A stretch of DNA of 64,000 nt, taken from NCBI GenBank assembly GCA_051748565.1, contig JBNJHN010000002.1:3696-67695 (forward strand), given 5' to 3'. The notes under the pieces were generated by a model. That model saw only the letters and a program-made list of their open reading frames with translations. It did no database searches and was not told where the DNA came from. Numbering within the stretch: position 1 is the first letter of the stretch; each line of letters starts with the position of its first letter. This DNA comes from Bacillota bacterium (GTDB lineage Bacteria > Bacillota > Dethiobacteria > DTU022). The translations under genes and the position numbers were made by a program. This document shows positions 5,630-54,646 of the stretch, in pieces.

Positions 5630-6904
5630 ATGAAAGCGCGTCTGGCATTAACGGTCATTGTCATTATACTTGTGCTGACAATCATAATCTGGGCTTCCGC
5701 AATTGATTTTGAGCCCCTCAGCCTGGGTTACCTGAGGCATTTCGGCCTGTTGTTCGCCGCGGTTGGCCTGGTGTTGATTTTTATGCAGTTTGTTTTCGTT
5801 TCCCGAATTAAAGCAATTGAAAACGGCTTCGGTTTGGATCGGATGTTACGGTGGCACAGGTTTTTCGGGCGGTCCGGCCTTGGTTTTTTATGGTTGCATG
5901 CAGTCATGATTGTGCTATTTCGCTTAATTGAGTTCGGAGATTTATTCTTATCAACTTTCATCTGGGTTGGAGTAGCTGCCCTGCTTGGTTTTTCTGTTAC
6001 AGCCATGCTTGCTTCATTGTACAAGAAACTGGGTTTGCTATATGAAATCTGGCGTAATATTCACTTGTTCAACTATTTATTGTTCCCTTTTGTTTTAGTT
6101 CATGTTTTTTACTTTTCCGTCGGGGCCGGTTCATCGTTTTTACTTATCTGGATCCTCCTGGCTGTTTTTTATGCGTTTTTAATTGTCTATCGTATTGTAA
6201 GAATTTTAGCCATTAGGCGTAACCCCTATGAGGTTATCGGGGTTAAACAGGAAGCCGAAGATATCTGGAGCTTAATTTTTGAAGGTAAAAGGATTGATTT
6301 TCGGCCGGGGCAGTTCATGATCATCCAGCTTTTACGTAACGGCAGGCTTTCATCACCGCATCCTTTTACCATTTCAAACAGCCCCACCCGCGAGAATCTC
6401 TCGATAACCCCAAAAGAACTTGGCGACTTTACAAAGACCATTAAAGAAACCAGGGTTGGAGATCAGGCTTTCATCGATGCACCTTACGGTGTTTTCAGTT
6501 TCTTAAACTACTGGCAGGATGAACTTGTTTTCATAGCCGGTGGAATTGGGATTACCCCTTTTATAAGTATGCTGCGTTATATCTGCGATCAGAAGCTTAA
6601 TCTCAGGGCAACCCTTTTCTGGGCAAATCGTAATGAAAGCAGCCTCTGCTTCAGGGAAGAACTACGGGAAATGGAAAAAGAAATGGAGCAATTTAAAGCG
6701 ATACTGGTTATGTCCGACCAGCCTGACTGGCCCGGTGAGAAAGGTTTTATCAATACCGGTATGATCACCGATTACCTGGGTAATCTCAGCCAAAAAGACT
6801 TTTTTGTCTGTGGGCCGCCTCCGATGATCAAGGCCATAATTAAAGATTTAAAAAAACAAAAAGTTCTTTCCCCCAGGATTCATAACGAGATTTTTGAGCT
6901 TTAA
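5630..6904 (+). CDS. NOX/ferric-reductase-family flavocytochrome (6-TM bis-heme domain + FAD + NAD(P)H-binding domains)
   Basis: His pairs spaced 13-14 residues apart sit in two TM helices (WHRFF...WLHAV; IHLFN...LVHVF). It also has the HPFTIS FAD motif, the GGIGITPF NAD(P)H motif and a C-terminal CGPPPM. Its 424-aa length is like the minimal bacterial NOX homologues. Confidence 0.75.
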   Translation: MKARLALTVIVIILVLTIIIWASAIDFEPLSLGYLRHFGLLFAAVGLVLIFMQFVFVSRIKAIENGFGLDRMLRWHRFFGRSGLGFLWLHAVMIVLFRLIEFGDLFLSTFIWVGVAALLGFSVTAMLASLYKKLGLLYEIWRNIHLFNYLLFPFVLVHVFYFSVGAGSSFLLIWILLAVFYAFLIVYRIVRILAIRRNPYEVIGVKQEAEDIWSLIFEGKRIDFRPGQFMIIQLLRNGRLSSPHPFTISNSPTRENLSITPKELGDFTKTIKETRVGDQAFIDAPYGVFSFLNYWQDELVFIAGGIGITPFISMLRYICDQKLNLRATLFWANRNESSLCFREELREMEKEMEQFKAILVMSDQPDWPGEKGFINTGMITDYLGNLSQKDFFVCGPPPMIKAIIKDLKKQKVLSPRIHNEIFEL

Positions 6905-23146: not shown

Positions 23147-23300
23147 AAAGATTCCTCCTCTTGTGTATATCCTGATTATAGAATAGAAAAGCCGAATCGA
23201 TCAACAACCGGATCTTTTTTCCGGCAGGACCGCTAACCTTTTTGTAGAATTATTAAGATAAGTAGACATGACTTTCTAATGGGGAAGGAGAATGGGGAAT

Positions 23301-25631
23301 ATGGAGGTGTATAAACATATCGGGAATTCTTTGCCCCGAAAAGATGGTGAAGATAAAGTCAGGGGTAAACTCCGATATCTTGGAGACAGGCAGTCGCCAC
23401 AGATGCTGCATGCGGCAATTAAAACCAGTCCGCATGCCCATGCCCAGATCATTAAGGTCGATACCAGTGCCGCTTTAGAAACTCCGGGAGTCAGGACTGT
23501 ACTTACCGGCGAGGATATTCCCGGAAATATCGGGATCTATCTTGGAGATAAACCGCCCTTAGCCCGCCAAAAAGTTCGCCATTATGGTGAACCGGTAGCA
23601 GCTGTCGTTGCCGACAGCGAAGCGGAAGCAAAAGCAGCCCTCCCGTTAATAAATGTTGAATATAAAACCTTACCGGTGGTTCGCTCCCCCTCCGAGTCCC
23701 TGGCCGAAGATGCTCCCCTGCTTCACGAGGATATGGATAGCTACTCTCATATCCCGGCCATATTCCCTGAACCGGGCAGTAATGTATCTAACAGGACCAA
23801 AATTCGCAAGGGTGATATCGATTCCGGTTTTAATGCAAGCGAAACCGTTATTGAAGAATCATTCAGTTTTCCGCCGGGTGATCACGTGGCCATGGAAACA
23901 CGGGCTTCCACAGCTGAAATTTTAGATGATGGCCAGGTGATTATCCACTCTACCACCCAGGCGCCTTTTGTTGTCCGCAGCCTTTTAGGAGCTTCTTTTA
24001 ATCTTCCGACGGGTAAAATAACTGTTATTACAGCTCCACTCGGCGGGGGCTTCGGAGGCAAAGCCGGCATTCAGCTGGAAGGATTGGCCTATCTGCTTTC
24101 CAAGGCGGTCGGTGGCCGGCTGGTCCGGCTGGTTAACAGCAGGGAAAATGATTTGATTTCTTCTCCGGGGCGGACCGGGTTGGAGGCAAAAATCAGGCTG
24201 GGCTGCTCAAAGGATGGTAAACTGCAGGCTGCTGAAATTAATTACTGTTTTGACAGCGGTGCCTATGCTGACTATGCCGTTAATATCAGCCGGGCCGCAG
24301 CGATTGCCTGTACCGGCCCTTACGCATTACCCAATGTCTGGTGCGATTCCACCTGTGTATACACAAACCATCCTTTTGCCACTGCATATCGCGGATTTGG
24401 CCATATCGAACTCGCTTTTGCCATGGAACGGGCCATAGATTTACTGGCTGAAAAAGCGGGAATTGATCCCCTCGAATTCCGGATGATTAATGCGATCCGG
24501 AAAGGCGATACAACACCTACCCAGAGCGTAATGGATGATAATACCGGAGATTTGAGAAAGTGTCTGAAAAAGGTTTCGGGTATGCTTGAATGGGAGGAGG
24601 GTGCTCGGCAAAAGACGACCAATGGAAAAGTTCGGGCTAAAGGTGTAAGCTGCTTCTGGAAAGCACCTGCTATGCCGACCAACGCCGACGGTGGGGCTAT
24701 TCTCACATTTAACGAGGATGGCACAGTTAACCTGCACTGCGGTGCAATAGAAATCGGGCAGGGATTAAAGACTGCCCTCGCCCAGATCCTGGCAGAAAAG
24801 CTTGGCATGCATCCTGACCAGGTTCATGTTACAGATGAAGTCAGTACCCGTTCTGCTCCTCATGACTGGGCTACAGCTGCCAGCCGCAGTCTTTTTATGA
24901 TCGGCAGGGCTTTGATTGAGGCTGCCGACGATGCCATCAGTCAGATTAAACAAACGGCATCAATAGTCCTGCGCTGTCCGCCGGAAGATCTGCAGGTATC
25001 CGGAGGTCGGGTTTTTTTGGCAGATGAACCGGATACAGGCTTACCTGTTGCTGATGTTGCCCTGGGTTATATGTTTCCTAATGGAAATGCCGTACAGGGG
25101 CAGGTTATTGGTGTTGGGCGATATATCTCACGCTTACTGACTGCGATAGATCCGGAAAGTGGTGCAGGCCGCCCGGCTCTTGAATGGACCATGGGAGCCC
25201 AGGGTGTAGAGGTTGAGCTCGATCCTTCTGACGGCACCTACCGGGTCTTAAAAGCCGTATGTTCCATGGATGTTGGTAAGGTAATCAACCCTTTCCTGGC
25301 CCGCGGACAGGTGGTTGGCGGTATGTCTATGGGACTCGGTTTTGCCGGTTGGGAAAGTTTTACACTTAACAGCCAGGGTCGGGTTATAAATGATAGCCTG
25401 AGGAACTATAAAATATTGCGCTACGGCGAAGAACCTGCTTACCAGGTTGAATTTGTAGAAACCCTTCAGCGCGACGGTCCTTACGGTGCCCGCGGTTTAG
25501 GGGAGCAGGGTGTTCTCGGTATGCCCGGCGCCCTGGCCGGAGCTTTGTCACGCGCCATAGGGCAGCCGCTTAAACAACTGCCGCTAACGCCACAGAAAAT
25601 CTGGGAAGCAGGAAAGGAGGCAGACAAATGA
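23301..25631 (+). CDS. xanthine dehydrogenase/aldehyde oxidase-family molybdopterin-binding large subunit
   Basis: a/b-hammerhead plus MoCo-binding domains, 779 aa. The ATG at 23301 has better SD spacing than the one at 23292. Confidence 0.85.
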   Translation: MEVYKHIGNSLPRKDGEDKVRGKLRYLGDRQSPQMLHAAIKTSPHAHAQIIKVDTSAALETPGVRTVLTGEDIPGNIGIYLGDKPPLARQKVRHYGEPVAAVVADSEAEAKAALPLINVEYKTLPVVRSPSESLAEDAPLLHEDMDSYSHIPAIFPEPGSNVSNRTKIRKGDIDSGFNASETVIEESFSFPPGDHVAMETRASTAEILDDGQVIIHSTTQAPFVVRSLLGASFNLPTGKITVITAPLGGGFGGKAGIQLEGLAYLLSKAVGGRLVRLVNSRENDLISSPGRTGLEAKIRLGCSKDGKLQAAEINYCFDSGAYADYAVNISRAAAIACTGPYALPNVWCDSTCVYTNHPFATAYRGFGHIELAFAMERAIDLLAEKAGIDPLEFRMINAIRKGDTTPTQSVMDDNTGDLRKCLKKVSGMLEWEEGARQKTTNGKVRAKGVSCFWKAPAMPTNADGGAILTFNEDGTVNLHCGAIEIGQGLKTALAQILAEKLGMHPDQVHVTDEVSTRSAPHDWATAASRSLFMIGRALIEAADDAISQIKQTASIVLRCPPEDLQVSGGRVFLADEPDTGLPVADVALGYMFPNGNAVQGQVIGVGRYISRLLTAIDPESGAGRPALEWTMGAQGVEVELDPSDGTYRVLKAVCSMDVGKVINPFLARGQVVGGMSMGLGFAGWESFTLNSQGRVINDSLRNYKILRYGEEPAYQVEFVETLQRDGPYGARGLGEQGVLGMPGALAGALSRAIGQPLKQLPLTPQKIWEAGKEADK

Positions 25632-29128: not shown

Positions 29129-29174
29129 TTTTTTGTTTGACAATAATCTAATGATGAAAGGAGAGAGGACCAAC

Positions 29175-31016
29175 GTGTATGAAAGGCATATTTTGATCTG
29201 TGCTGGAACGGGCTGCATTTCGTCGGGTGCCCTGGATATACAAAATGTCCTGGTCGATGAGCTCAAAAAGCACGATCTCGAGGATAAAGTGCGTATCATA
29301 ATGTCAGGATGTCACGGTTTCTGCGAAAAAGGACCGATTTTTATTGTATACCCGGAAGATGTTTTCTACTGCGAAGTCAAAGCTGAAGATGTTCCTGAAA
29401 TAGTGGAAGAATATCTGGTAAATGGCAATATGGTAGAACGGCTGCTATACAAAGATCCTGTTTCTGAAGAGACAGTCATTAACCACGACAAGATAATGTT
29501 TTACAGCAAACAAAAGCGTTTGGCCCTGCGAAACTGCGGTGTTATTGATCCTGAAAATATTGATGAATACATTATCCGCGGCGGCTATATAGGCCTGAAA
29601 AAAGCATTGCAGATGGAGCCGATGGCGGTAGTTAACGAGGTTAAAAGCTCAGGCCTGCGTGGCAGGGGCGGTGCAGGATTCCCTACCGGGATGAAGTGGC
29701 AGTTTGGAAACAGCAGTCCCGGAGAAAAAAAATACGTTGTCTGCAATGCCGACGAAGGAGACCCCGGAGCTTTTATGGACCGGAGTATTCTCGAGGGTGA
29801 CCCCCATGCGGTTCTCGAAGGCATGCTCATTGCCGGCCGGGCGATCAACGCTGACGAAGGCTATATATATGTTCGCTCCGAGTATCCCCTGGCGATTAAA
29901 CGTCTGCGGACCGCCATTACCCAGGCTGAACAATACGGTATGCTTGGAGAAAACATCTTAGATTTCGGCTTTAATTTTAAGGTAAAAATAAAGGAGGGTG
30001 CGGGTGCTTTTGTCTGTGGAGAAGAGACAGCATTGCTTGCCTCAATCGAAGGGAAACGAGGCGTACCCCGCCATCGTCCTCCCTTTCCAGCTATAAAAGG
30101 ACTCTGGGGTAAACCGACAATTATTAACAATGTTGAAACACTTGCCAATGTGCCTCTAATTATGCGCCGCGGAGCAGAAGAATTTGCATCTGTCGGTACA
30201 GAAGGCAGCAAGGGCACCAAGGTTTTTGCCCTGACCGGTAAAGTTAACAACACCGGCTTGGTTGAAGTTCCTATGGGAATCTCAATTCGTGAAGTTGTTT
30301 TTGACATCGGCGGCGGTATCCGCTACGGCAAAAAATTTAAAGCCGCCCAGATCGGAGGACCTTCGGGAGGTTGTATTCCCGATGAGCATCTCGACCTGCC
30401 CATTGATTTCGATTCTCTTACCGCGGCAGGAGCAATGATGGGTTCAGGTGGCCTTGTCGTTGTTGATGAAGATACCTGTATGGTTGATATGGCCCGCTAC
30501 TTTTTGAACTTTACTAAAAAAGAGTCGTGCGGACAGTGTATTCCCTGCCGCCTCGGTACTACACAGATGTATAATATCCTTGAAGATATTACTGAGGGAC
30601 GGGGAAAACCGGAAGATATTGATCTGCTCGAAGAACTGGCCACAGCGGTTAAGAAAGGTTCTATGTGCGGCCTGGGTCAGACAGCGCCTAACCCGGTTCT
30701 GACTACCCTGCGATATTTCCGCGATGAATACGAGGCTCACGTTATGGAGAAACGCTGTCCGGCCCTTGTTTGTAAAGCTCTGTTAAAATATAGTATCGAT
30801 CCTGAAAAATGTATTGGCTGCCAGCGGTGTATTAAGGCCTGCCCGGTTGATGCCATCAGCGGAGAAAAGAAGGAACCGCATATTATTGACCAGGATAAAT
30901 GTACCCGGTGTGCAGCCTGCTTCGAAGCTTGTCCGAAGAAGGTTCGCGCTGTGGAGGTCGTCTCTGAGGGACTGCCTGAAACAATAGAATTAGCAGTAAG
31001 CAAGGAGGGCAAATAA
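29175..31016 (+). CDS. NuoF-like FMN/NAD-binding Fe-S subunit with a C-terminal 2x[4Fe-4S] ferredoxin domain (HndC/FdhB-like)
   Basis: N-terminal 2Fe-2S Trx-like domain (ILICAGTGCISSG), an FMN/NADH-binding core and the SLBB region ending MCGLGQTAP, plus C-terminal CIGCQRCIKACP...CTRCAACFEACP. The likely start is the GTG at 29175 after AAAGGAGAGAGG; the ORF-track ATG at 29133 has no SD. Confidence 0.85.
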   Translation: MYERHILICAGTGCISSGALDIQNVLVDELKKHDLEDKVRIIMSGCHGFCEKGPIFIVYPEDVFYCEVKAEDVPEIVEEYLVNGNMVERLLYKDPVSEETVINHDKIMFYSKQKRLALRNCGVIDPENIDEYIIRGGYIGLKKALQMEPMAVVNEVKSSGLRGRGGAGFPTGMKWQFGNSSPGEKKYVVCNADEGDPGAFMDRSILEGDPHAVLEGMLIAGRAINADEGYIYVRSEYPLAIKRLRTAITQAEQYGMLGENILDFGFNFKVKIKEGAGAFVCGEETALLASIEGKRGVPRHRPPFPAIKGLWGKPTIINNVETLANVPLIMRRGAEEFASVGTEGSKGTKVFALTGKVNNTGLVEVPMGISIREVVFDIGGGIRYGKKFKAAQIGGPSGGCIPDEHLDLPIDFDSLTAAGAMMGSGGLVVVDEDTCMVDMARYFLNFTKKESCGQCIPCRLGTTQMYNILEDITEGRGKPEDIDLLEELATAVKKGSMCGLGQTAPNPVLTTLRYFRDEYEAHVMEKRCPALVCKALLKYSIDPEKCIGCQRCIKACPVDAISGEKKEPHIIDQDKCTRCAACFEACPKKVRAVEVVSEGLPETIELAVSKEGK

Positions 31017-33688
31017 TGTCAGAGCTAATCACTCTCACCATAGATGACCTGGAGGTTCAAGCTGCTCCCGGCACCTCCATTTTAAGAGCAGCCCTGGATA
31101 ACGGAATATATATTCCCCATCTGTGCGATCACCTAGATCTAACTTCAGTTGGTATCTGCCGGGTCTGCCTGGTAGAGATCGAAGGGCGCCGTCCCACGGT
31201 TTCCTGCATGACCCCTGTTGAAGAGGGTCTGATCGTGCGCACCGCCAGTGAGGAATTGGATAAAACCCGCAGACTCAACCTGGAATTGTTAGTCCTAAAC
31301 CACGATTACGACTGCCAGAACTGTGCCAAGAACAGCAAATGCCAACTGCAGGAATTGACCCGTTTTATCGGCCTTGATGAAGATCGGATCAATTCAATGC
31401 GGAAACCTGAGCTTGCTATGCCTCTGGATGATTCCAACCCTTACTACCTGCGAGATATGAATAAATGTGTTTTATGCGGTATTTGTGTGCGAACCTGCGA
31501 AGAAATTCAGGGTGATGAATGTATCGATTTCACTTTTCGCGGAATTGAAACCAGGATCGGTGTGCTTGGTGATAAGCCAATCATAGATTCCACCTGTGTA
31601 ACCTGCGGAGAATGCGTTGTCCGCTGCCCGGTTGGCGCCTTGATTCCCCGGGAAGCGGTTGAACCAACTTATGAAGTCGAAACGGTATGCCCCTTCTGTG
31701 GTTGTGGCTGCGGTATATTAGTCGGAGCCAGGGGCGGCAAAATTGTCAGCTCAACAGCAGTCGATGATAGCCCATCAAGCGGCGGCAGTCTTTGCGTCAA
31801 AGGGCGTTTCGGACTTGGCTTTGTCAACTCTCCGAAGCGTTTGACAACACCGTTGATTCGCAAAGAAGGCAAACTGGTAGAAGCGAGCTGGGAAGAAGCA
31901 CTCAGCTTAGTGGCGGGAAAGCTTGGCCAGTATAAGGGCGGTCAGTTTGCCACTATTGCTTCTGCCAAGTGCTCCGTTGAAGATAACTATGTGTTGCAAA
32001 AATTTACGAGGGCAGTGATGGGAACAAATAATATTGATCACTGTGCCCGTCTCTGACACGCTCCCACAGTGGCCGGTCTGGCCACTACATTGGGAAGCGG
32101 TGCGATGACCAATACCATTTCTGAGATTGGAGACGCTGCATGTATCATAGCAATCGGCACCAGCACTACTGAAGCGCACCCGATTGTCGGCTACCAGGTT
32201 AAAAAAGCAGTTCGGCAGGGGGCAAAGTTAATTGTTGTCAACCCGCAGGAAGTTCCCCTGGTCCGTTTTGCCGATATATTCCTCCAGATAAAACCGGGCA
32301 GTGATGTGGCTCTTCTGATGGGTATGGCCAGGGCGATTATCGAAGAGGAGTTGCATGATCAAAAATATATTGAAGAGCGCTGTGAGGATTTTGATAAATT
32401 TAAGCAGTCCCTGGAAGAATACGCACCTGATTTTGTCAGCGATATTACCGGTGTTCCCTGGGAAAAGATAGCAGAAGCGGCTAAAATGTATGCTCAAAAT
32501 AACCCAGCATCGATTTTATACTGCATGGGTATAACCCAGCATTCACACGGCACTGATAACGTTATGGCCATAAGTAACCTGGCCCTGATCACCGGCAACC
32601 TGGGTCGTGCTGCAAGCGGGGTTAACCCCCTGCGTGGACAGAACAATGTCCAGGGTGCCTGCGATATGGGCTCACTGCCCAATGTTTTTACCGGTTATCA
32701 AAAAGTTGATAATCCTGAGGCTCGTGAGAAATTTGAGAAAGCCTGGGGTGTATACCTGAGCGGAGAGCCGGGTCTTACCCACACCGAGATTTTTGACGCA
32801 GCTTACAAAGGAGATATAAAAGCCCTTTACCTGGTTGGCGAGAACCCGGTTCTTACCGAAGCCAATGCTGCCCATGCGCAGGAAGCGATGGAGAAACTGG
32901 ACTTTTTAGTCGTTCAGGATATCTTCCTTAACGAGACTGCGGCTATAGCTGATGTGGTCCTGCCGGCAGCATCATTAATTGAGAAGAACGGTACTGTGGT
33001 TAATACTGAAAGACGAGTACAGCGTATACGCAAAGTAATTGAACCGGTTGGAGAGGCAAAGCCTGACTGGTGGATAGTAAGTGCCATTGCCAACGAAATG
33101 GGTGCGGAAGGTTTTGCATATAACAGTGCTGAGGAGATCTTTAAAGAGGCTGCTTCTCTTACTCCAAGCTATGCAGGTATAAACTACGACAGATTAAAAG
33201 AGGGAAGTATTCAATGGCCCTGTCCGACGGAAGATCATCCCGGGACACCAATTCTGCATACCGAGAAATTTAACACTCCTTCGGGCAAAGGCAAACTGGT
33301 ACCGATTGTATACAGACCCTCGGAAGATTGCTGTGATTTCGATTTTCCACTGGTCCTGACCACGGAACGCAACCTTTACCAGTACCACAGCACTATGACC
33401 CGCTACTCCGAAGGGCTGGATGAACTGAGCGGTGGCGAACATATTATGATCAATCCGATTGACGCTGAAAAGATGGGTATATCTGACGGCGAAATGGTTG
33501 AAGTGAAATCGCGTCGTGGTGAACTAAAAGTTAAAGCAAAAATTACCCGGCGCAGTCAGAAGGGTGTCGCTTCACTCAGTTTCCACTTTGCTGAATGTCC
33601 GACCAACCTGCTGACCAGTGCGGCCCTGGACCCGGTATCAAAAACGCCCGAGACCAAGGTGTGTGCCATCAGTATCGAAAAAGCCTGA
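31016..33688 (+). CDS. fdhA: formate dehydrogenase alpha subunit, selenocysteine-containing (in-frame UGA at 32054-32056)
   Basis: The ORFs 31016-32056 and 32069-33688 are in the same frame, separated only by a TGA. The context IDHCARL-U-HAPTVAG matches the FdhA/FdhF Sec active site (ARV-U-HGPSV). The N-terminus has NuoG-like 2Fe-2S/4Fe-4S domains and the C-terminus has the molybdopterin and MGD-binding domains. Confidence 0.85.
32068..32086 (+). other. bacterial SECIS-like hairpin (AGTGGCC-GGUCU-GGCCACU) 12 nt downstream of the fdhA UGA
   Basis: 7-bp perfect stem whose apical loop contains GGUCU, resembling the E. coli fdhF SECIS apical loop. Confidence 0.5.
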
Positions 33689-38795: not shown

Positions 38796-40682
38796 ATGGA
38801 AAAAGCGGGCAAAAACAAACCAAATCGCCTGGTGAAAGAGAAGTCACCTTACCTTTTGCAGCATGCTTATAATCCTGTCGATTGGTTTCCCTGGGGCGAT
38901 GAAGCTTTTGAGAAAGCAAAAAAAGAAAACAAGCCTGTATTCCTGAGTATAGGCTACTCTACATGTCATTGGTGTCATGTAATGGAGAAAGATTCTTTCG
39001 AAGATCAGGAGGTTGCCGCCCTGATCAATGAGCATTTTATACCGATTAAAGTTGATCGCGAAGAACGTCCCGATTTAGATCAAAAGTATATGGCCGCCTG
39101 CCAGGCTTTAACCGGGCAGGGAGGGTGGCCGCTTACAGTATTTCTTACTCCTGATAAAAAGCCCTTTTATGCCGGGACTTTCTTTCCGAAGCGATCGCGT
39201 TACGGGATTAACGGTATGATGGAAATTCTGCCAAAATTGAGTGCTTTCTGGAAGGAAGATCGTGACAGAGTTATTCAAGCCGGCAACGAATTGACCTCTG
39301 CTCTGACTCAAATGGCCCGTAATACCGGAAGTGCTAATGGCAAAGTACTCCGGACGCTGCCGGGAGCAGATCTACTCGACCGGGCCTGTAAACAGTTAAA
39401 AGACAGTTACGATAAACAGTATAGTGGTTTTGGCGAAGCGCCAAAATTTCCGGCCCCACACCAACTGATTTATCTTGTCCGCTGTTGGAATCGTAACAAT
39501 GATAGTAAAGCATTGGAAATGGCCGTAAGTACTTTGCGGGCAATGCACCGGGGAGGAATTTTCGACCAAATAGGTTATGGATTGCACCGCTATTCAGTTG
39601 ACCGCAGGTGGCTGGTGCCTCATTTTGAAAAGATGCTTTACGACCAGGCTCTCGTTGTTCTGGCAGCCCTGGAAGCTTATAAAAGTTCCGGTGAAGATGA
39701 GATGGCTATCTTCGCCCGTAAAGTGATCAGCTATGTTATGACAGAGCTTGCTTCTCCGGAAGGGGCTTTTTTTGCTGCTGAAGATGCTGACAGTGAAGGA
39801 GAAGAAGGAACCTTTTATGTTTGGCGGCCTGAAGAACTCATAGAAGCGCTTGGTAAAGAGCAGGGCAGCCTGGTATCAGATTACTTTGGAGTTACAGAAA
39901 AAGGTAATTTCGAAAAAGGTAAAAGTATTTTTCACCGGGTAGCGGATGATGATAAATTTGCCACTGAAAGAGGTATGACCGAAGAGGATCTGGCAAAAAC
40001 GCTTGAACTTGCAAGGACAACCCTGCTTAAAGTACGCAGCCACCGTGAAAGGCCTTTTCGTGATGATAAAATAATCACCTCATGGAACGGCTTAATTATT
40101 GCCGCACTGGCTCGGGCTGCATATATATTGCAGGAACCAGATTACTTAAGAGCCGCAGAAAAGGCAGTCTCATTTATCACCCATAAGATGGTATCCCCTG
40201 ATGGCCGCTTATTAAGAAGATATCGCGAGGGTGAAGCAGCCATACCTGCTTTTCTCGATGATTATGCTAATTTGACCTGGGGATTCCTGGAGATTTACCG
40301 AAGCAGCAGCGAACCTGTTTACCTCGAGAGGGCTGAAAATCTAAGCCGTGAAATGCTCGATCTTTTTATGAAAGAAAAGGGTATTTTACAATATAGTAAT
40401 TCAAATGAGGAGCCGGAAGATTTTGCTCTTGAAGCAGAAGCCTCCGACAGCGCGACTCCATCTGGAGTCTCTGTTGCAGCGATGAATTTGCTTCGGTTGG
40501 GTAGATTGCTGCAGCAGGAAAGCATGGTTAAGATAGGGCGGGGTCTGATAAAAAGCCAGCAGTCTAAGCTCGAGCGATTTCCAACCAGTTTTACTTACCT
40601 GCTCACAGCCCTGGATTATGCCCTTTCAGCTAATGGAGAGAATTTTTATTGCACTCCCGATGGGAATTGCGGAGAGGAATAA
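38796..40682 (+). CDS. thioredoxin-domain protein YyaL-like (DUF255 + six-hairpin domain)
   Basis: N-terminal thioredoxin-like domain carrying the motif CHWCHVME, then a long alpha/alpha-toroid region. 628 aa. Confidence 0.8.
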
Positions 40683-51889: not shown

Positions 51890-53035
51890 TTAGGGATTAT
51901 CAATTAGGAAATGTTTAAAGATTCGAGTCAGTTCAGCTGCTTTTTTTTCAATCAGATGCGGCCCTCTGGAGATCGATTCTTCAATAGAAAGAGGACCGTC
52001 TGCGATTGCGAAACAGGCAGTAATACCTTGCTTATGAAAAATTTCCAGCCCGCCTTCTATAATTCCGGCCAGGGCAATTACCGGCACGTTAAATTTTTGG
52101 GCCCTTCTTGCTACTCCAACCGGTGCTTTACCGCTAGCAGACTGTGCATCCAGTTTGCCTTCACCGGTAACCAGCAGGCTGCAATGGACTAAAAAACGGT
52201 CAACATCAAGGGTATCGAGAACCAATTCTATGCCAGGGCAGATTTCTGCATTTAAAAATGCAATCAACCCCGCTCCCAATCCACCGGCAGCACCACTGCC
52301 GGGGATGTCGCCAATATCTTTTCCAATGGTTTTTTTAATTACTCTCCGGTAATTTTCGAGAGCCCGGTCCAGCATCTTGACCATTTCCGGAGTTGCCCCT
52401 TTTTGTGGGCCGTAAGTATACGAAGCACCTTTTGGTCCCGTAAGGGGATTGTTGACATCAGAGGCAACCTTGACTGAAACCTGCTGCAGTCGGGGGTCGA
52501 GGCCTGACATGTCGATGTGGCTTAATCGAATCAATTCTGCTCCACAGCCCTTAAGCGGCTCTCCTGAATGATCGAAAAATTCAGCGCCCAGGGCTTGTGC
52601 CATGCCGGCCCCACCATCATTGGTTGCACTGCCACCGATACCAATGATCAGATTCGAACAGCCATAATCGAGGGCAGTTTTGATCAACTCACCTGTACCG
52701 AAGGTGGATGTAACAGAAGGATCCCTCTGTGCTTCTGGTACCAGGGTCAGACCGGAAGCAGCCGCCATTTCAATTATTGCTGTTTTCTCAATATCATTAA
52801 ATCCCCATTCGGCTTTTACTAACTGGCCGAGTGGTCCGGTTACTGTGGTGGTTACTACCGAAATGTTTCCTATCCCGGCCAATGATTCAACAAGGCCCTC
52901 TCCGCCGTCCGAAAGAGGCAGTAAGATTAGCTCTGAATTAGGCAGGACAGAATTTATCCCCAGGGCAATATATCGGGCTGCTTCAGATGCAGACATGCTT
53001 CCCTTGAATTTATCGGGCGCTATGACGATTCGCAC
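51890..53035 (-). CDS. glxK: glycerate kinase
   Basis: Glycerate kinase family N-terminus VRIVIAPDKFKGS. GTG start with an AAGGTGG SD, so the ORF-track start is too far upstream. Confidence 0.82.
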   Translation of the reverse strand: MRIVIAPDKFKGSMSASEAARYIALGINSVLPNSELILLPLSDGGEGLVESLAGIGNISVVTTTVTGPLGQLVKAEWGFNDIEKTAIIEMAAASGLTLVPEAQRDPSVTSTFGTGELIKTALDYGCSNLIIGIGGSATNDGGAGMAQALGAEFFDHSGEPLKGCGAELIRLSHIDMSGLDPRLQQVSVKVASDVNNPLTGPKGASYTYGPQKGATPEMVKMLDRALENYRRVIKKTIGKDIGDIPGSGAAGGLGAGLIAFLNAEICPGIELVLDTLDVDRFLVHCSLLVTGEGKLDAQSASGKAPVGVARRAQKFNVPVIALAGIIEGGLEIFHKQGITACFAIADGPLSIEESISRGPHLIEKKAAELTRIFKHFLIDNP

Positions 53036-53226
53036 CGAATAAACCACCTTTGATTGGAGTTTAACTTTTCTATAAAATTTCTTCAATAATACAGGCGATC
53101 CTGCTTGATATTGCAAAACCTCGCGCAGGCATCCATTGCAGCTCTATTTAGGTCAGCGAAGAGCCGGGATCTTGTGGTATAATAAGAATGGTTTTTATTT
53201 AGACTATTCTGAAGGAGCGTTTAATA

Positions 53227-53502
53227 ATGGATAATATAAGCATTATGCCTGCAGCCAAAGAAAGAATGAAAAATTCTTCAAAAACTTATACGCTATACCT
53301 GGCCAGCCGTGGTGGCTGAGGCGGTTCATCCGTGACTCCTGCCGTGAAAGCAGGTATGCCTGTAGAAGTAAATAATTATGAGAAAAAAGAAGTGGAAGGG
53401 ATACCTTTCTATATCCGGAAGGACCTTGTTAACAAGCAGTTTGAAATTAACTGGGCCGGTTTTTGGATCTTCGGACAGTTTGTAGTAACTGAACGGGAAT
53501 AG
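53227..53502 (+). CDS. candidate small selenoprotein (91 codons, in-frame UGA at 53317-53319)
   Basis: An extended -10 TGGTATAAT lies at 53174-53182 and a GAAGGAG SD 11 nt before the ATG. A 30-codon ORF, then TGA, then 60 more in-frame codons (…ASRGG-U-GGSSVTPAVKAG…FVVTERE). A stem-loop follows 19 nt after the UGA, and a 10-bp terminator follows the gene. Confidence 0.3.
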
Positions 53503-53551
53503 TCATGATTGCGCAGGTGGTAATTCAGCCGGCCCGGTCCTTTAATAATTC

Positions 53552-53580
53552 AAACCCTGCTAAGATGGTCAGCAGGGTTT
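53552..53580. terminator. bidirectional terminator AAACCCTGCT-N9-AGCAGGGTTT
   Basis: Perfect 10-bp stem between the convergent candidate selenoprotein and rubredoxin genes. Confidence 0.5.
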
Positions 53581-53586
53581 CATCAT

Positions 53587-53778
53587 TTATACTGTGTCCG
53601 GTACAGCCTGGAATTCATCCTTATCTGCGCCACAAACGGGGCATTTCCAGTCGTCTGGTATTTCTTCAAAGGCAGTTCCCGGCACAATGCCGTTTTCAGG
53701 GTCTCCGATCTCCGGTTCGTAAGTATAATCACAGAGTTCACATACATAACTTTGCATCAAATTAATCCTCCTAAACAT
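53587..53778 (-). CDS. rd: rubredoxin
   Basis: CxxC...CPxCG ([10 protein letters not shown]...[13 protein letters not shown]). Confidence 0.85.
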
Positions 53779-53935
53779 ATTTTTACTTGTTGCAGGGATC
53801 TTTTATAGAAATAATAGATCATAGCTAAGTTTCCGTCAAATTCTTTTAAGCAGCAGCATTTATTACATTTATTCATAGAATAATGATACACATTCTTCAG
53901 AACGGTCAGTTTGTCGGTGCAGAAAGGAAATTTTT

Positions 53936-54646
53936 ATGCGTGTTTGGGACTTACATCCGGGATATCTCTCAAGGCAAAGTCTGCTTGGCCAGCATGCAGA
54001 AATTCATGCCCTGTTCACTATTCTTGGCTCCGGGAAAAAGGGATATTCTTTACATCCTGAAACTTTGCGCTGGAAAGGTAAATTGGGCAGATTGAAACGG
54101 GTACACGATCTTACTGTTTTGGAAATGGAATTGCGCGGATTTAATCATGCCAGTCCTCTTGCCTTATGCAGCGATCTCAATCAAAATAAGCTTTCATTTG
54201 TAGATCAACCGGTAGAACAGATCGCTATTCTTCATGGAAAGTATTTTCTAAGAAACCAGGCCGGCCGTATACCCCTGCCCAAAAATATATATGAACTATG
54301 GGCCCATCACAAGTATTCGGTAATGGCCCGCGGATATGAACATTATAAAAATGTACGGTCTTTAATCAGGAACAATAACAACTGTTCTTTGGAAAAAGCC
54401 GGATCTCTGCCCGAACAAATTATTAAATTACTTTATCTGCCTGTAACTGCACCGGCTTTGGAAAATGTTGTTGATCACCTCTGGGGCTACTTAAAACGAG
54501 AGGCTTCATATGCAGAAAAAGAGCGATACCTGGGCAGGCAGACTGGCGATCTGCCAGCCCTGGTTAGCTTGTTTTTCGATCTTGCCTGCAAATATAACTG
54601 CAAATACCTGCAGCATTCCACCATATTCGCCGACCTTACTGAATAG
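53936..54646 (+). CDS. pyrimidine-dimer DNA glycosylase/endonuclease V-like family protein (tentative)
   Basis: N-terminus MRVWDLHPGYLSRQSLLGQH recalled as typical of this family. The assignment is tentative. Confidence 0.4.
   Translation: MRVWDLHPGYLSRQSLLGQHAEIHALFTILGSGKKGYSLHPETLRWKGKLGRLKRVHDLTVLEMELRGFNHASPLALCSDLNQNKLSFVDQPVEQIAILHGKYFLRNQAGRIPLPKNIYELWAHHKYSVMARGYEHYKNVRSLIRNNNNCSLEKAGSLPEQIIKLLYLPVTAPALENVVDHLWGYLKREASYAEKERYLGRQTGDLPALVSLFFDLACKYNCKYLQHSTIFADLTE

Follow-up and report, generated by a model that had tools for sequence, protein, structure and literature searches.

Gene structure and expression signals

The window, by which we mean the whole 64-kb stretch of DNA that was analysed, contains on its forward strand a short gene whose reading frame, read directly from the sequence, runs through 30 sense codons, a TGA at codon 31 and then 60 further in-frame codons. 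With the TGA taken as selenocysteine (Sec), the residues around it would be ...SRGG-U-GGSS..., and there is no Cys among the 91 residues. The gene and its expression signals are as follows.

53175-53183, + strand: extended -10 element TGgTATAAT (TATAAT at 53178-53183), with a poor -35; sequence read directly
53183-53197, + strand: conserved motif TAAGAATGGTTTTTA directly after the -10 (post-(-10) consensus A-a-n-AATgAtT, 24 loci)
53211-53217, + strand: Shine-Dalgarno sequence GAAGGAG, 9 nt before the ATG; sequence read directly
53227-53502, + strand: putative complete CDS of a 91-residue CC/Se motif family selenoprotein, from ATG 53227 to the stop TAG 53500-53502
53317-53319, + strand: candidate Sec codon UGA (U31), TGA in 26/26 loci
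53552-53561 and 53571-53580, no strand assigned: perfect 10-bp hairpin with stem AAACCCUGCU/AGCAGGGUUU and a 9-nt loop

A preliminary description of this locus had listed the extended -10, the GAAGGAG and the ATG at 53227, the frame of 30 codons, TGA and 60 codons (91 in total) with its Gly-rich, Cys-free product and U31, and the perfect 10-bp terminator stem, and all of these are present. Its account of why the gene had been missed also stands, since the UGA would split a single selenoprotein gene into two short ORFs. The GenBank entry for the locus consists of a 56-aa fragment only, the hypothetical protein MGM0688073.1, with its start at GTG 53332.

Neither the promoter nor the terminator hairpin was found by consensus scans, so that support for them comes from conservation instead. 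The promoter at 53175-53183 went uncalled by a scan that demands a -35 match, and the hairpin at 53552-53580 was not called by the terminator scan because of its 9-nt loop and weak T-run. For comparison we used 26 loci, comprising the window and 25 syntenic loci from Syntrophomonadaceae/Bacillota metagenome-assembled genomes (MAGs). The sequence TGNTATAAT is present upstream of the gene in 24 of these, 39-137 nt before the ATG; the Shine-Dalgarno position is occupied by GGAGG, AGGAG or a weaker G-rich variant in nearly all; and a strong hairpin follows the stop codon, at the same position, in most. In the window this hairpin folds at -14.3 kcal/mol (z -3.0; none of 200 shuffled sequences folds as stably), and, lying as it does between the convergent selenoprotein and rubredoxin genes, it is probably a bidirectional terminator. 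What the conserved motif at 53183-53197 does is uncertain; it could serve as an operator or mark where the transcript begins. In two loci (L022 and L025), a perfect 7-1-7 palindrome, TAAGAATgATTCTTA, follows the -10. A search of the window for this palindrome as a Fur/PerR-type operator turned up 9 matches where 4.9 would be expected, not a significant excess, and none lay upstream of rubredoxin or rubrerythrin; we therefore make no claim of a regulon.

Membership of the CC/Se motif family

Translated through the UGA, the protein matches the NCBIfam profile NF041239, "CC/Se motif family (seleno)protein" ('Moor_selen_rel'), with 54.8 bits (E 7.4e-15) against a curated cutoff of 40 bits, and the match covers profile positions 2-89 of 91. 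The 56-aa C-terminal piece alone reaches 34 bits, below that cutoff. All 27 aligned relatives match the same profile, and the close homologues all carry the precomputed Pfam assignment PF28096 (CC_Se_fam); our local copy of Pfam, from which PF28096 is possibly missing, gave no match for the window protein. The family is also listed among the selenoproteins tabulated in a 2026 review (PMC13188914). Thus the earlier proposal of a "novel" small protein does not hold, and by its profile matches the protein is a missed annotation within a catalogued family rather than a new kind of selenoprotein.

The window protein shares with the family a length of about 91 aa, a Sec at the position of the CC motif and the conserved P-x-V-x-x-G-x-P segment after it. 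It differs in the motif itself, which is given as CxxU in the review (PMC13188914), whereas the window protein has no Cys and reads ASRGG-U-GGSS. In the literature examined, NF041239 is named only in this review; the main texts of two papers cited for the family (GOS 2008 and ISME J 2016) contain neither Moorella nor the family.

The practical consequence is one of annotation: the public MAG record holds only the 56-aa "hypothetical protein", and many database entries of the family end at the UGA or carry a false Trp there. Nothing in the finding overturns current understanding.

Conservation of the UGA codon and coding constraint

The preliminary description had called for homologues that span the UGA, for a comparison of synteny in related genomes and for a measure of constraint across the junction, and each of these came out in favour of readthrough. 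The 25 syntenic homologues cover the whole length of the protein, across the UGA, with both flanks conserved as protein. The TGA is kept by all 26 sequences, among which protein identity has fallen to 51-70%. The two sides of the codon are under equal purifying selection, with dN/dS of 0.198 in the N-terminal part and 0.205 in the C-terminal part, while off-frame controls give pN/pS of 1.25 and 1.48. This combination is far beyond chance. As the 30 N-terminal codons are constrained like the C-terminal part, the start of the protein is neither ATG 53356, the internal start against which the readthrough reading had been set, nor GTG 53332.

The pattern extends beyond the syntenic loci. In distant clades (L026-L031 and L034-L036, 9 loci), a TGA again stands at the equivalent position, and the Cys-containing homologues that the preliminary description had suggested looking for exist as CC forms. 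These were retrieved from a search of 1.84 billion representative proteins, are uninterrupted, and have the second Cys of a GCCGG motif aligned with U31 (P0036, P0056, P0057, P0064, P0072). About half of the window protein's clade has a CxxxU motif (ACRGGU).

If the UGA were an ordinary stop, the locus would encode a 30-aa peptide and, independently, a 56-aa protein whose start would be GTG 53332, as in GenBank, or ATG 53356. This is how GenBank has it, with MGM0688073.1 annotated alone; the gene callers of several databases agree (P0002, P0003, P0006, P0007), and TGA does serve as a normal stop in this genome. Nevertheless, we regard two separate products as very unlikely. They would leave unexplained why, in 26/26 loci, the first 30 codons stay in frame with the rest at an unchanging distance and show protein-level conservation (dN/dS 0.20), why it is the readthrough product and not the subthreshold 56-aa piece that fits NF041239 end to end, and why the Cys-Cys homologues are uninterrupted. 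In addition, GTG 53332 has no Shine-Dalgarno sequence before it.

A predicted SECIS hairpin downstream of the UGA

Shortly after the UGA and still within the coding region, as in bacterial SECIS elements of the fdhF/fdhA type, lies a small hairpin that may be enclosed by a second helix.

53338-53354, + strand: predicted bSECIS core hairpin CCUGC-CGUGAAA-GCAGG, with an invariant 5-bp stem and a geometry that fits the bSECIS model
53319-53361, + strand: possible lower SECIS helix, in which AGGCG (53319-53323) pairs with UGCCU (53357-53361) and encloses the core hairpin

In the core hairpin, CCUGC (53338-53342) pairs with GCAGG (53350-53354) around a 7-nt apical loop, CGUGAAA (53343-53349). The stem-loop had been reported to lie 19 nt after the UGA; the structure itself is there, but a count of 19 already includes the first base of the stem. 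The spacer from the UGA is 18 nt to the stem and 23 nt to the apical loop. According to the bSECIS model, the apical loop has 3-9 nt with a G in its first two positions, the upper stem has 4-16 bp and the apical loop lies 16-37 nt from the UGA (PMC13188914). The window element falls within this geometry, with its 7-nt loop, 5-bp stem, spacing of 23 nt, and G at loop position 2 followed by U.

The strongest evidence for the hairpin comes from its nucleotides. The stem and the first four bases of the loop are invariant in 26/26 loci, including the fourfold synonymous third positions of codons 38, 39, 40 and 42. At ten comparable fourfold sites outside the hairpin, H3 ranges from 1.0 to 1.9 bits (1.4-1.9 for invariant Gly, Thr and Pro codons). 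This shows that selection acts on the hairpin at the RNA level, and the expectation of a SECIS-compatible fold in the downstream RNA is borne out. The hairpin is also the sole helix predicted by RNAalifold. Its stem shows no covariation across the 26 loci, because it never varies. It makes a clean natural case of a minimal bacterial SECIS, 17 nt long, for which the evidence is synonymous-site invariance and not covariation.

Energetically, the hairpin alone folds at -6.6 kcal/mol (z -2.4), as compared with the free-energy criterion of the bSECIS model of -7.5 kcal/mol or lower. When the hairpin is enforced, the window sequence folds at -11.7 kcal/mol and forms the lower helix, and the folds of 26/26 loci reach -7.8 kcal/mol or lower. 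The unconstrained minimum in the window is a different fold, at -13.6 kcal/mol, and the 49-nt fold has a z of -0.57. For the lower helix, pairing of the GGNGG region just after the UGA with the CC region of Pro45 is found in 61.7% of cells across loci, with a covariation score reached by 10 of 500 shuffles; such a helix is possible, with an ambiguous register and weak to moderate support. An extension of the upper stem (columns 18-21 with 39-42) was considered as well and rejected, since it has 68.9% paired cells and no gain over shuffles. A scan of the whole window against Rfam at gathering thresholds gave no match, to a bacterial SECIS model or to any other.

The window offers a direct comparison in the SECIS of its formate dehydrogenase gene, fdhA, whose loop is GGUCU. 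Both elements have G-U at apical loop positions 2-3, but the FdhA SECIS folds at -23.8 kcal/mol, in contrast with the -6.6 kcal/mol, 5-bp stem, 7-nt loop and poorly defined lower helix of the element described here.

Probable selenocysteine decoding

That gene, which the preliminary description had also pointed to, is a genuine Sec-containing FdhA, with the canonical context HCARL-TGA-HAPT (TGA at 32054-32056) and a strong GGUCU-loop SECIS; its presence suggests that the organism uses the Sec-insertion machinery. The 64-kb window holds no tRNA genes and hence no tRNA-Sec, and selA, selB and selD were not found among the selected ORFs of the window that were scanned. We envisage that the small gene would be transcribed from its own extended -10 promoter, that the hairpin 18 nt after the UGA would recruit SelB with Sec-tRNASec to the ribosome, and that UGA31 would be read as selenocysteine. 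Both SelB binding and Sec insertion at residue 31 are what we infer from the codon and the RNA element.

The W that appears at the aligned position in a number of homologues (P0001, P0004, P0005, P0008-P0014 and many proteins of the representative library) might suggest that the UGA encodes Trp or Gly under a variant code (table 4 or 25). Wherever the underlying DNA could be read, however (L001, L026-L031, L034-L036), this W is a TGA translated by the gene caller. TGA ends 13 of the 44 long ORFs in the window, which indicates the standard genetic code, the other in-frame TGA is the FdhA Sec site, and the uninterrupted homologues have Cys at the aligned residue, neither Trp nor Gly. We thus consider recoding to either amino acid extremely improbable. 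Finally, with related proteins uninterrupted, the in-frame stop could in formal terms mark a CC-family gene decaying after a nonsense mutation, but this is effectively refuted by conservation, given the same TGA in 26 sequences at 51-70% protein identity, undiminished selection downstream of it and a nucleotide-invariant hairpin at SECIS distance.

The in-frame UGA of the 91-residue protein is thus almost certainly a real selenocysteine codon, judging from the comparative evidence. The best overall explanation is that 53227-53502 is one gene encoding a selenoprotein of the CC/Se motif family, to which we assign a probability of about 0.92.

Predicted fold and comparison with IscA-type proteins

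AlphaFold2 models of the protein have pLDDT values of 76.6 and 79.1, and the top 10 matches in a Foldseek search against the PDB are all of the IscA/SufA/DsrR type. The protein is therefore predicted to adopt the HesB/IscA (A-type carrier) fold. In the models, Sec31 would sit at the tip of the beta2-beta3 hairpin, no more than one residue from the first cluster-ligand Cys of IscA; hhalign likewise places U31 beside Cys35 of E. coli IscA, with a probability of 5%.

At the sequence level, the likeness to IscA is marginal. The window protein has no HesB/IscA match in Pfam or NCBIfam (PF01521 / TIGR00049), the family profile has no match among PDB sequences, and matches to ErpA-related (ErpA_rel) and SufA profiles are weak, the former in 3 of 27 relatives (best E 0.015) and the latter in 1 of 27 (E 0.068). 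We take the cluster-ligand Cys residues of E. coli IscA to be C35, C99 and C101. Of these three sites, only the first is occupied in the CC/Se family, by U or CC within one residue, while the other two Cys are missing. As compared with IscA, SufA and ErpA (HesB domain, PF01521; ~107 aa), the window protein is shorter, at 91 aa, and ends before any CxC, so that the C-terminal CxC ligands are absent, and the single Cys of those proteins is replaced by Sec or CC in the CC/Se family.

Two further groups of proteins invite comparison. The HesB-like selenoprotein (TIGR01911) is also small, with a HesB-type fold and a Sec that occupies, or lies close to, the first conserved Cys site; its motif is U-x-G-P (UxGP in PMC13188914), as against GG-U-GG in the window protein. 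TIGR01911 has no match to the window protein at E <= 1, nor to its 27 relatives at E <= 10, and it is a separate family. DsrR, an IscA-like protein of the dsr sulfur-oxidation cluster (PDB 2k4z), is a structural match with which no sequence similarity was detected. DsrR itself is not known to have a conserved reactive Cys or Sec.

Genomic neighbourhood and possible function

Genes for rubredoxin, rubrerythrin, NifS, NifU, TusA and DsrE lie beside the gene in 25 loci, wherever the contig reaches. The link to the rubredoxin/rubrerythrin/NifS island that had been suggested for the window is thus conserved within its clade, but it is not seen around distant members of the family. The surroundings of the latter, which rest on about 8 contigs, include ArsR-type regulators, an SBF/ACR3-like permease, SOD, Usp and an SDF transporter. 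A metagenome scan for such members gave a single contig, of 1.2 kb, and none was found to carry the Acetoanaerobium protein P0097. It may be, then, that the conserved neighbourhood reflects only shared ancestry within one family-level clade.

The functional hypothesis for the protein is a weak one. We propose that it serves, through its Sec, as a carrier or in redox reactions connected with the adjacent rubredoxin-rubrerythrin-NifS-NifU-TusA-DsrE cluster. The lone selenol would be a reactive or ligand-binding group, probably within a dimer, and would bind or transfer a thiophilic species, be it Fe or Fe-S, persulfide sulfur, selenium or a soft metal; in the clade of the window, this activity would serve the adjacent rubredoxin/rubrerythrin and NifS-NifU-TusA-DsrE genes. 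In its most specific form, the proposal is that the CC/Se family is a pared-down A-type-carrier fold that keeps the first ligand site only and has Sec there, and that the window protein is a Cys-free, single-Sec dimer whose two selenols bridge Fe/Fe-S, persulfide/perselenide or a soft metal, making it a trafficking or repair factor for NifS-NifU-TusA-DsrE and rubredoxin/rubrerythrin. This we put forward as a speculative and rather doubtful model; if true, selenium-ligated trafficking or repair would be the first biochemical role for the CC/Se family.

The protein could also be a real selenoprotein with a role outside Fe-S and sulfur trafficking, in the binding or detoxification of soft metals and metalloids (Cu, As, Hg) or as a reductase of peroxides or disulfides that works on its own. 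Pairs of vicinal Cys are well-known ligands of soft metals or metalloids. The gene of one CC-form relative (L032) is flanked by an ArsR-type regulator and an SBF/ACR3-like permease, and other relatives adjoin an HTH_5 regulator, an Fe/Mn SOD or Usp. A palindrome, TACC-N4-6-GGGGTA, also lies at the promoter -35 in five loci near the window's clade, and presumably resembles operators of the CsoR/CstR type. However, the palindrome is absent from the window's own promoter and was not found elsewhere in the window, the constant neighbours in the window's clade are rubredoxin/rubrerythrin and NifS-NifU-TusA-DsrE, and in structure the protein resembles only Fe-S A-type carriers and DsrR. On balance, a role of this kind is a minority possibility that deserves to be taken seriously.

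The predicted HesB/IscA fold, the placement of Sec at the turn of IscA Cys35 and the neighbourhood in alkaliphilic Syntrophomonadaceae point to assays of Fe-S, persulfide and metal binding. At one of the syntenic loci (L017), NifS is the next gene downstream.

Gene structure and public annotation

Direct reading of positions 52900-53800 and translation of 53227-53502 bear out the structure first assigned to this gene by a preliminary description, with a promoter -10, a Shine-Dalgarno sequence (SD) and a start codon ahead of 30 + 60 codons around an in-frame UGA, a stem-loop past the UGA and a perfect hairpin downstream.

Features read in the sequence of the gene (+)
53175-53183: extended -10, TGgTATAAT
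53211-53217: SD, GAAGGAG
53227: start ATG
53317-53319: in-frame TGA after 30 sense codons
53338-53342 and 53350-53354: core hairpin CCUGC/GCAGG, loop CGUGAAA, 18 nt past the UGA
53500-53502: stop TAG, after 60 further in-frame codons past the TGA
53552-53580: perfect 10-bp hairpin

The readthrough product, MDNISIMPAAKERMKNSSKTYTLYLASRGG-U-GGSSVTPAVKAGMPVEVNNYEKKEVEGIPFYIRKDLVNKQFEINWAGFWIFGQFVVTERE, has 91 residues and, as had been stated, no Cys. The feature is real and had been spotted correctly. The public annotation misses the selenoprotein: its record for 53332-53502 is the 56-aa C-terminal piece only, "hypothetical protein ACQESO_00640" (MGM0688073.1), and this truncation to a hypothetical protein is one of the points particular to the case.

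Family membership and reading frame

The protein had been put forward as novel, but it does not represent a new selenoprotein family, because curated entries, NF041239 and PF28096 (CC_Se_fam), already exist for the family, which is also listed among selenoprotein families, with the motif CxxU, in PMC13188914 (referring to Zhang & Gladyshev 2008 and Peng et al. 2016). What is particular to this case is instead the Cys-free GG-U-GG variant, which differs from that motif and belongs to a clade of Syntrophomonadaceae and Bacillota MAGs. With Sec entered as Cys, the readthrough protein aligns to positions 2-89 of the 91-position NF041239 profile at 54.8 bits (curated cutoff 40); on its own, the 56-aa C-terminal piece reaches 34 bits and stays under the cutoff.

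Searching 5.8 billion proteins under a k-mer limit yielded only close relatives, every one with PF28096; these were either C-terminal fragments of 51-56 aa or complete proteins in which residue 31 reads "W". This "W" stands at the Sec position in the database proteins P0001, P0004, P0005, P0008-P0014, P0048, P0051, P0087 and P0089, and wherever DNA was read, whether the entry's own or that of a near-identical relative (loci L001, L026-L031, L034-L036), the codon behind it is TGA. Apparently, gene callers translated short contigs with TGA as Trp, which gives the false "W".

Homologues spanning the UGA were found at 25 loci (22 from a one-genome-per-species scan and three metagenome contigs), all from Syntrophomonadaceae or Bacillota MAGs. 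The TGA occupies the same codon in the window and in 25/25 of these loci, in the context RGG-U-[GAC][GCS], and a codon table of the 26 sequences shows amino acids kept and third positions variable on either side of it. Since dN/dS (Nei-Gojobori) is 0.198 for codons 2-30 and 0.205 for codons 32-89, compared with pN/pS of 1.25 and 1.48 when the N-terminal DNA is read in frames +1 and +2, the 30 upstream codons are part of the same protein. The same N-terminal constraint rules out a downstream protein starting at GTG 53332 or ATG 53356.

UGA31 as a probable selenocysteine codon

Four lines of evidence say that UGA31 is selenocysteine: Cys homologues, a standard genetic code, a Sec-containing FdhA and selection on the hairpin. 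We infer, with a probability of about 0.9, that UGA31 is recoded to Sec, SelB being recruited to the 17-nt hairpin and thereby directing insertion.

The Cys homologues emerged when 1.84 billion representatives were searched exhaustively with a profile: the distant relatives P0036, P0056, P0057, P0064, P0072 and P0077 carry an unbroken Cys-Cys at this place in the alignment, U31 aligning with the second Cys of GCCGG; in other distant clades, this search together with DNA reading found the TGA interruption again. The code is standard, with 13 of the 44 long ORFs in the window ending in TGA. No tRNA-Sec gene was found within the 64-kb window. Sec decoding in the same organism is indicated by FdhA (31016-33688, +; 2Fe-2S, 4Fe-4S and molybdopterin domains), previously noted as Sec-containing, which is split at a TGA (32054-32056) in the canonical motif HCARL-U-HAPTVAGL, followed by a strong SECIS (AGUGGCC-GGUCU-GGCCACU, -23.8 kcal/mol, z -4.2). 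Upstream of FdhA, 29133-31016 encodes a NuoF-like subunit.

Selection on the hairpin is seen in codons 38, 39, 40 and 42 (CCT GCC GTG ... GCA), which are invariant in 26/26 loci, 4-fold degenerate third positions included. At ten comparable sites (A10, R28, G29, G30, T37, G43, P45, G58, G78, G83) the third position varies, with entropies of 1.0-1.9 bits; were the four lowest of all 14 such sites drawn at random, they would coincide with these codons about once in 1000 draws. As judged from this alignment, nucleotide-level selection acts on the hairpin, and the constraint shown at synonymous sites of a minimal SECIS is a further point particular to this case. Stem, loop and spacing are SECIS-compatible under the bSECIS model.

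The hairpin compared with the bSECIS model quoted in PMC13188914
Apical loop: model 3-9 nt; element 7 nt
Upper stem: model 4-16 bp; element 5 bp
G in first two loop positions: required; element has G at position 2, then U
UGA to apical loop: model 16-37 nt; element 23 nt
Free energy: model <= -7.5 kcal/mol; hairpin alone -6.6 kcal/mol

When folding is made to include the hairpin, the free energy is -11.7 kcal/mol in the window and <= -7.8 kcal/mol in 26/26 loci; the unconstrained minimum in the window is a competing fold (-13.6 kcal/mol, z -0.57). The stem shows no covariation across the 26 loci because it never varies. Extension to a longer upper stem is unsupported. A lower helix, pairing GGNGG 3' of the UGA with the CC region at Pro45, has 61.7% of cells paired, and its covariation score was equalled in 10/500 shuffles, which is modest support. 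Rfam gave no match.

Predicted fold

Two AlphaFold2 models of P0001, a homologue 61% identical to the window protein, with 9 and 22 aligned sequences as input, reached pLDDT 76.6 and 79.1 with the same topology (beta-alpha-beta-beta-beta-beta-beta-beta), placing residue 31 in a tight turn joining strands 21-30 and 33-42. The ten best Foldseek matches in the PDB were IscA, SufA, AQ_1857, DsrR and HI1723 structures (E 2e-4 to 6e-3, TM 0.51-0.64), and this predicted HesB/IscA fold is also particular to the present case. At the sequence level, IscA is only marginally similar: an hhalign comparison with the E. coli protein gave E 0.0076 and a probability of 5%, three of 27 relatives weakly matched an ErpA-related model, and Pfam, NCBIfam and PDB-sequence searches gave no HesB match for the window protein. 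In the hhalign alignment U31 adjoins IscA Cys35, which would put the first of the two Cys in CC forms on Cys35.

Failing the profile test and lacking the C-terminal CxC ligands of A-type carriers, the CC/Se family lies outside the A-type carrier family; the models suggest that it uses an IscA-like scaffold without being a member. It is likewise distinct from the HesB-like selenoprotein family TIGR01911, which matched neither the window protein nor any of the 27 relatives.

Gene neighbourhood and possible function

Immediate neighbours in the window
glycerate kinase (-)
rubredoxin (-), convergent with the selenoprotein gene
53936-54646 (+): Pyr_excise (pyrimidine dimer DNA glycosylase) + DUF1722 protein, between rubredoxin and rubrerythrin
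rubrerythrin (-)
NifS, NifU, TusA and DsrE (+)
PNPOx-like protein

The proposed link to a redox island stands in part. Gene order is the same across the 25 related loci where the contig reaches far enough, apart from L017, which lacks rubredoxin and rubrerythrin, and from the Pyr_excise/DUF1722 gene, a variable insertion present in about half of the loci; distant family members, however, lie in other settings. Moreover, the 25 loci are related at the family level (neighbours 55-94% identical), so their shared order argues only weakly for functional coupling. Tentatively, the lone selenol, located where the IscA-like hairpin turns, would be a reactive or ligand-binding group, probably acting across a dimer, which might handle thiophilic species, whether Fe, Fe-S, persulfide, perselenide or a soft metal, in a role tied to the adjacent Fe-S/sulfur-relay and peroxide-defence genes.

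A role in metal or metalloid handling is a serious alternative, held at a similarly low confidence. At locus L032 (34-1979), the CC form P0036 lies between an ArsR-type HTH_5 regulator and an SBF/ACR3-like permease, in what looks like a metalloid-resistance operon. The distant TGA forms adjoin an HTH_5 regulator (L026) or a Questin-oxidase-like protein and Fe/Mn SOD (L029-L031), or lie directly 3' of an SDF transporter (L035) or near Usp and PspC (L036); at most, these distant contexts share a theme of stress, metal or redox.

Expression signals

A simple consensus scan called neither a promoter nor a terminator at the gene (poor -35, 9-nt loop, weak T-run). The presence of TGNTATAAT upstream in 24/26 loci nevertheless supports a promoter of its own. 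At L017 (6001-6700), which has neither rubredoxin nor rubrerythrin, NifS follows the selenoprotein gene in the same orientation at a distance of 413 nt, and the lack of TGNTATAAT within 160 nt upstream of the selenoprotein gene suggests co-transcription with flanking genes.

Directly 3' of TGNTATAAT, A-a-n-AATGATT is conserved. In L022 and L025 this motif makes up the 7-1-7 palindrome TAAGAATgATTCTTA without a mismatch, and the window copy (53183-53197) is a degenerate version with two mismatches; a window-wide search for the palindrome was not significant and found no enrichment elsewhere. The motif may be an operator, with an architecture like Fur-family boxes, or a 5'-leader feature. A second palindrome, TACC-N4-6-GGGGTA (e.g. 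ATACCCATGGGGGTAT), absent from the window, lies at the -35 of the CC/Se promoter in five related loci (L018 ~1371-1386, L020 ~925-940, L021 ~5893-5908, L022 ~5910-5925, L025 ~2456-2471). It resembles CsoR/CstR-type operators and may point to copper- or persulfide-responsive regulation in some members of the clade.

The perfect 10-bp hairpin between the gene and convergent rubredoxin (-14.3 kcal/mol, z -3.0) is consistent with a bidirectional terminator, and strong hairpins lie 3' of the stop codon in most loci. Elsewhere the window encodes a 628-aa Thioredox_DsbH (DUF255) protein (38796-40682, +), a xanthine-dehydrogenase-type MoCoBD protein (23292-25631) and several further redox/molybdoenzyme genes.
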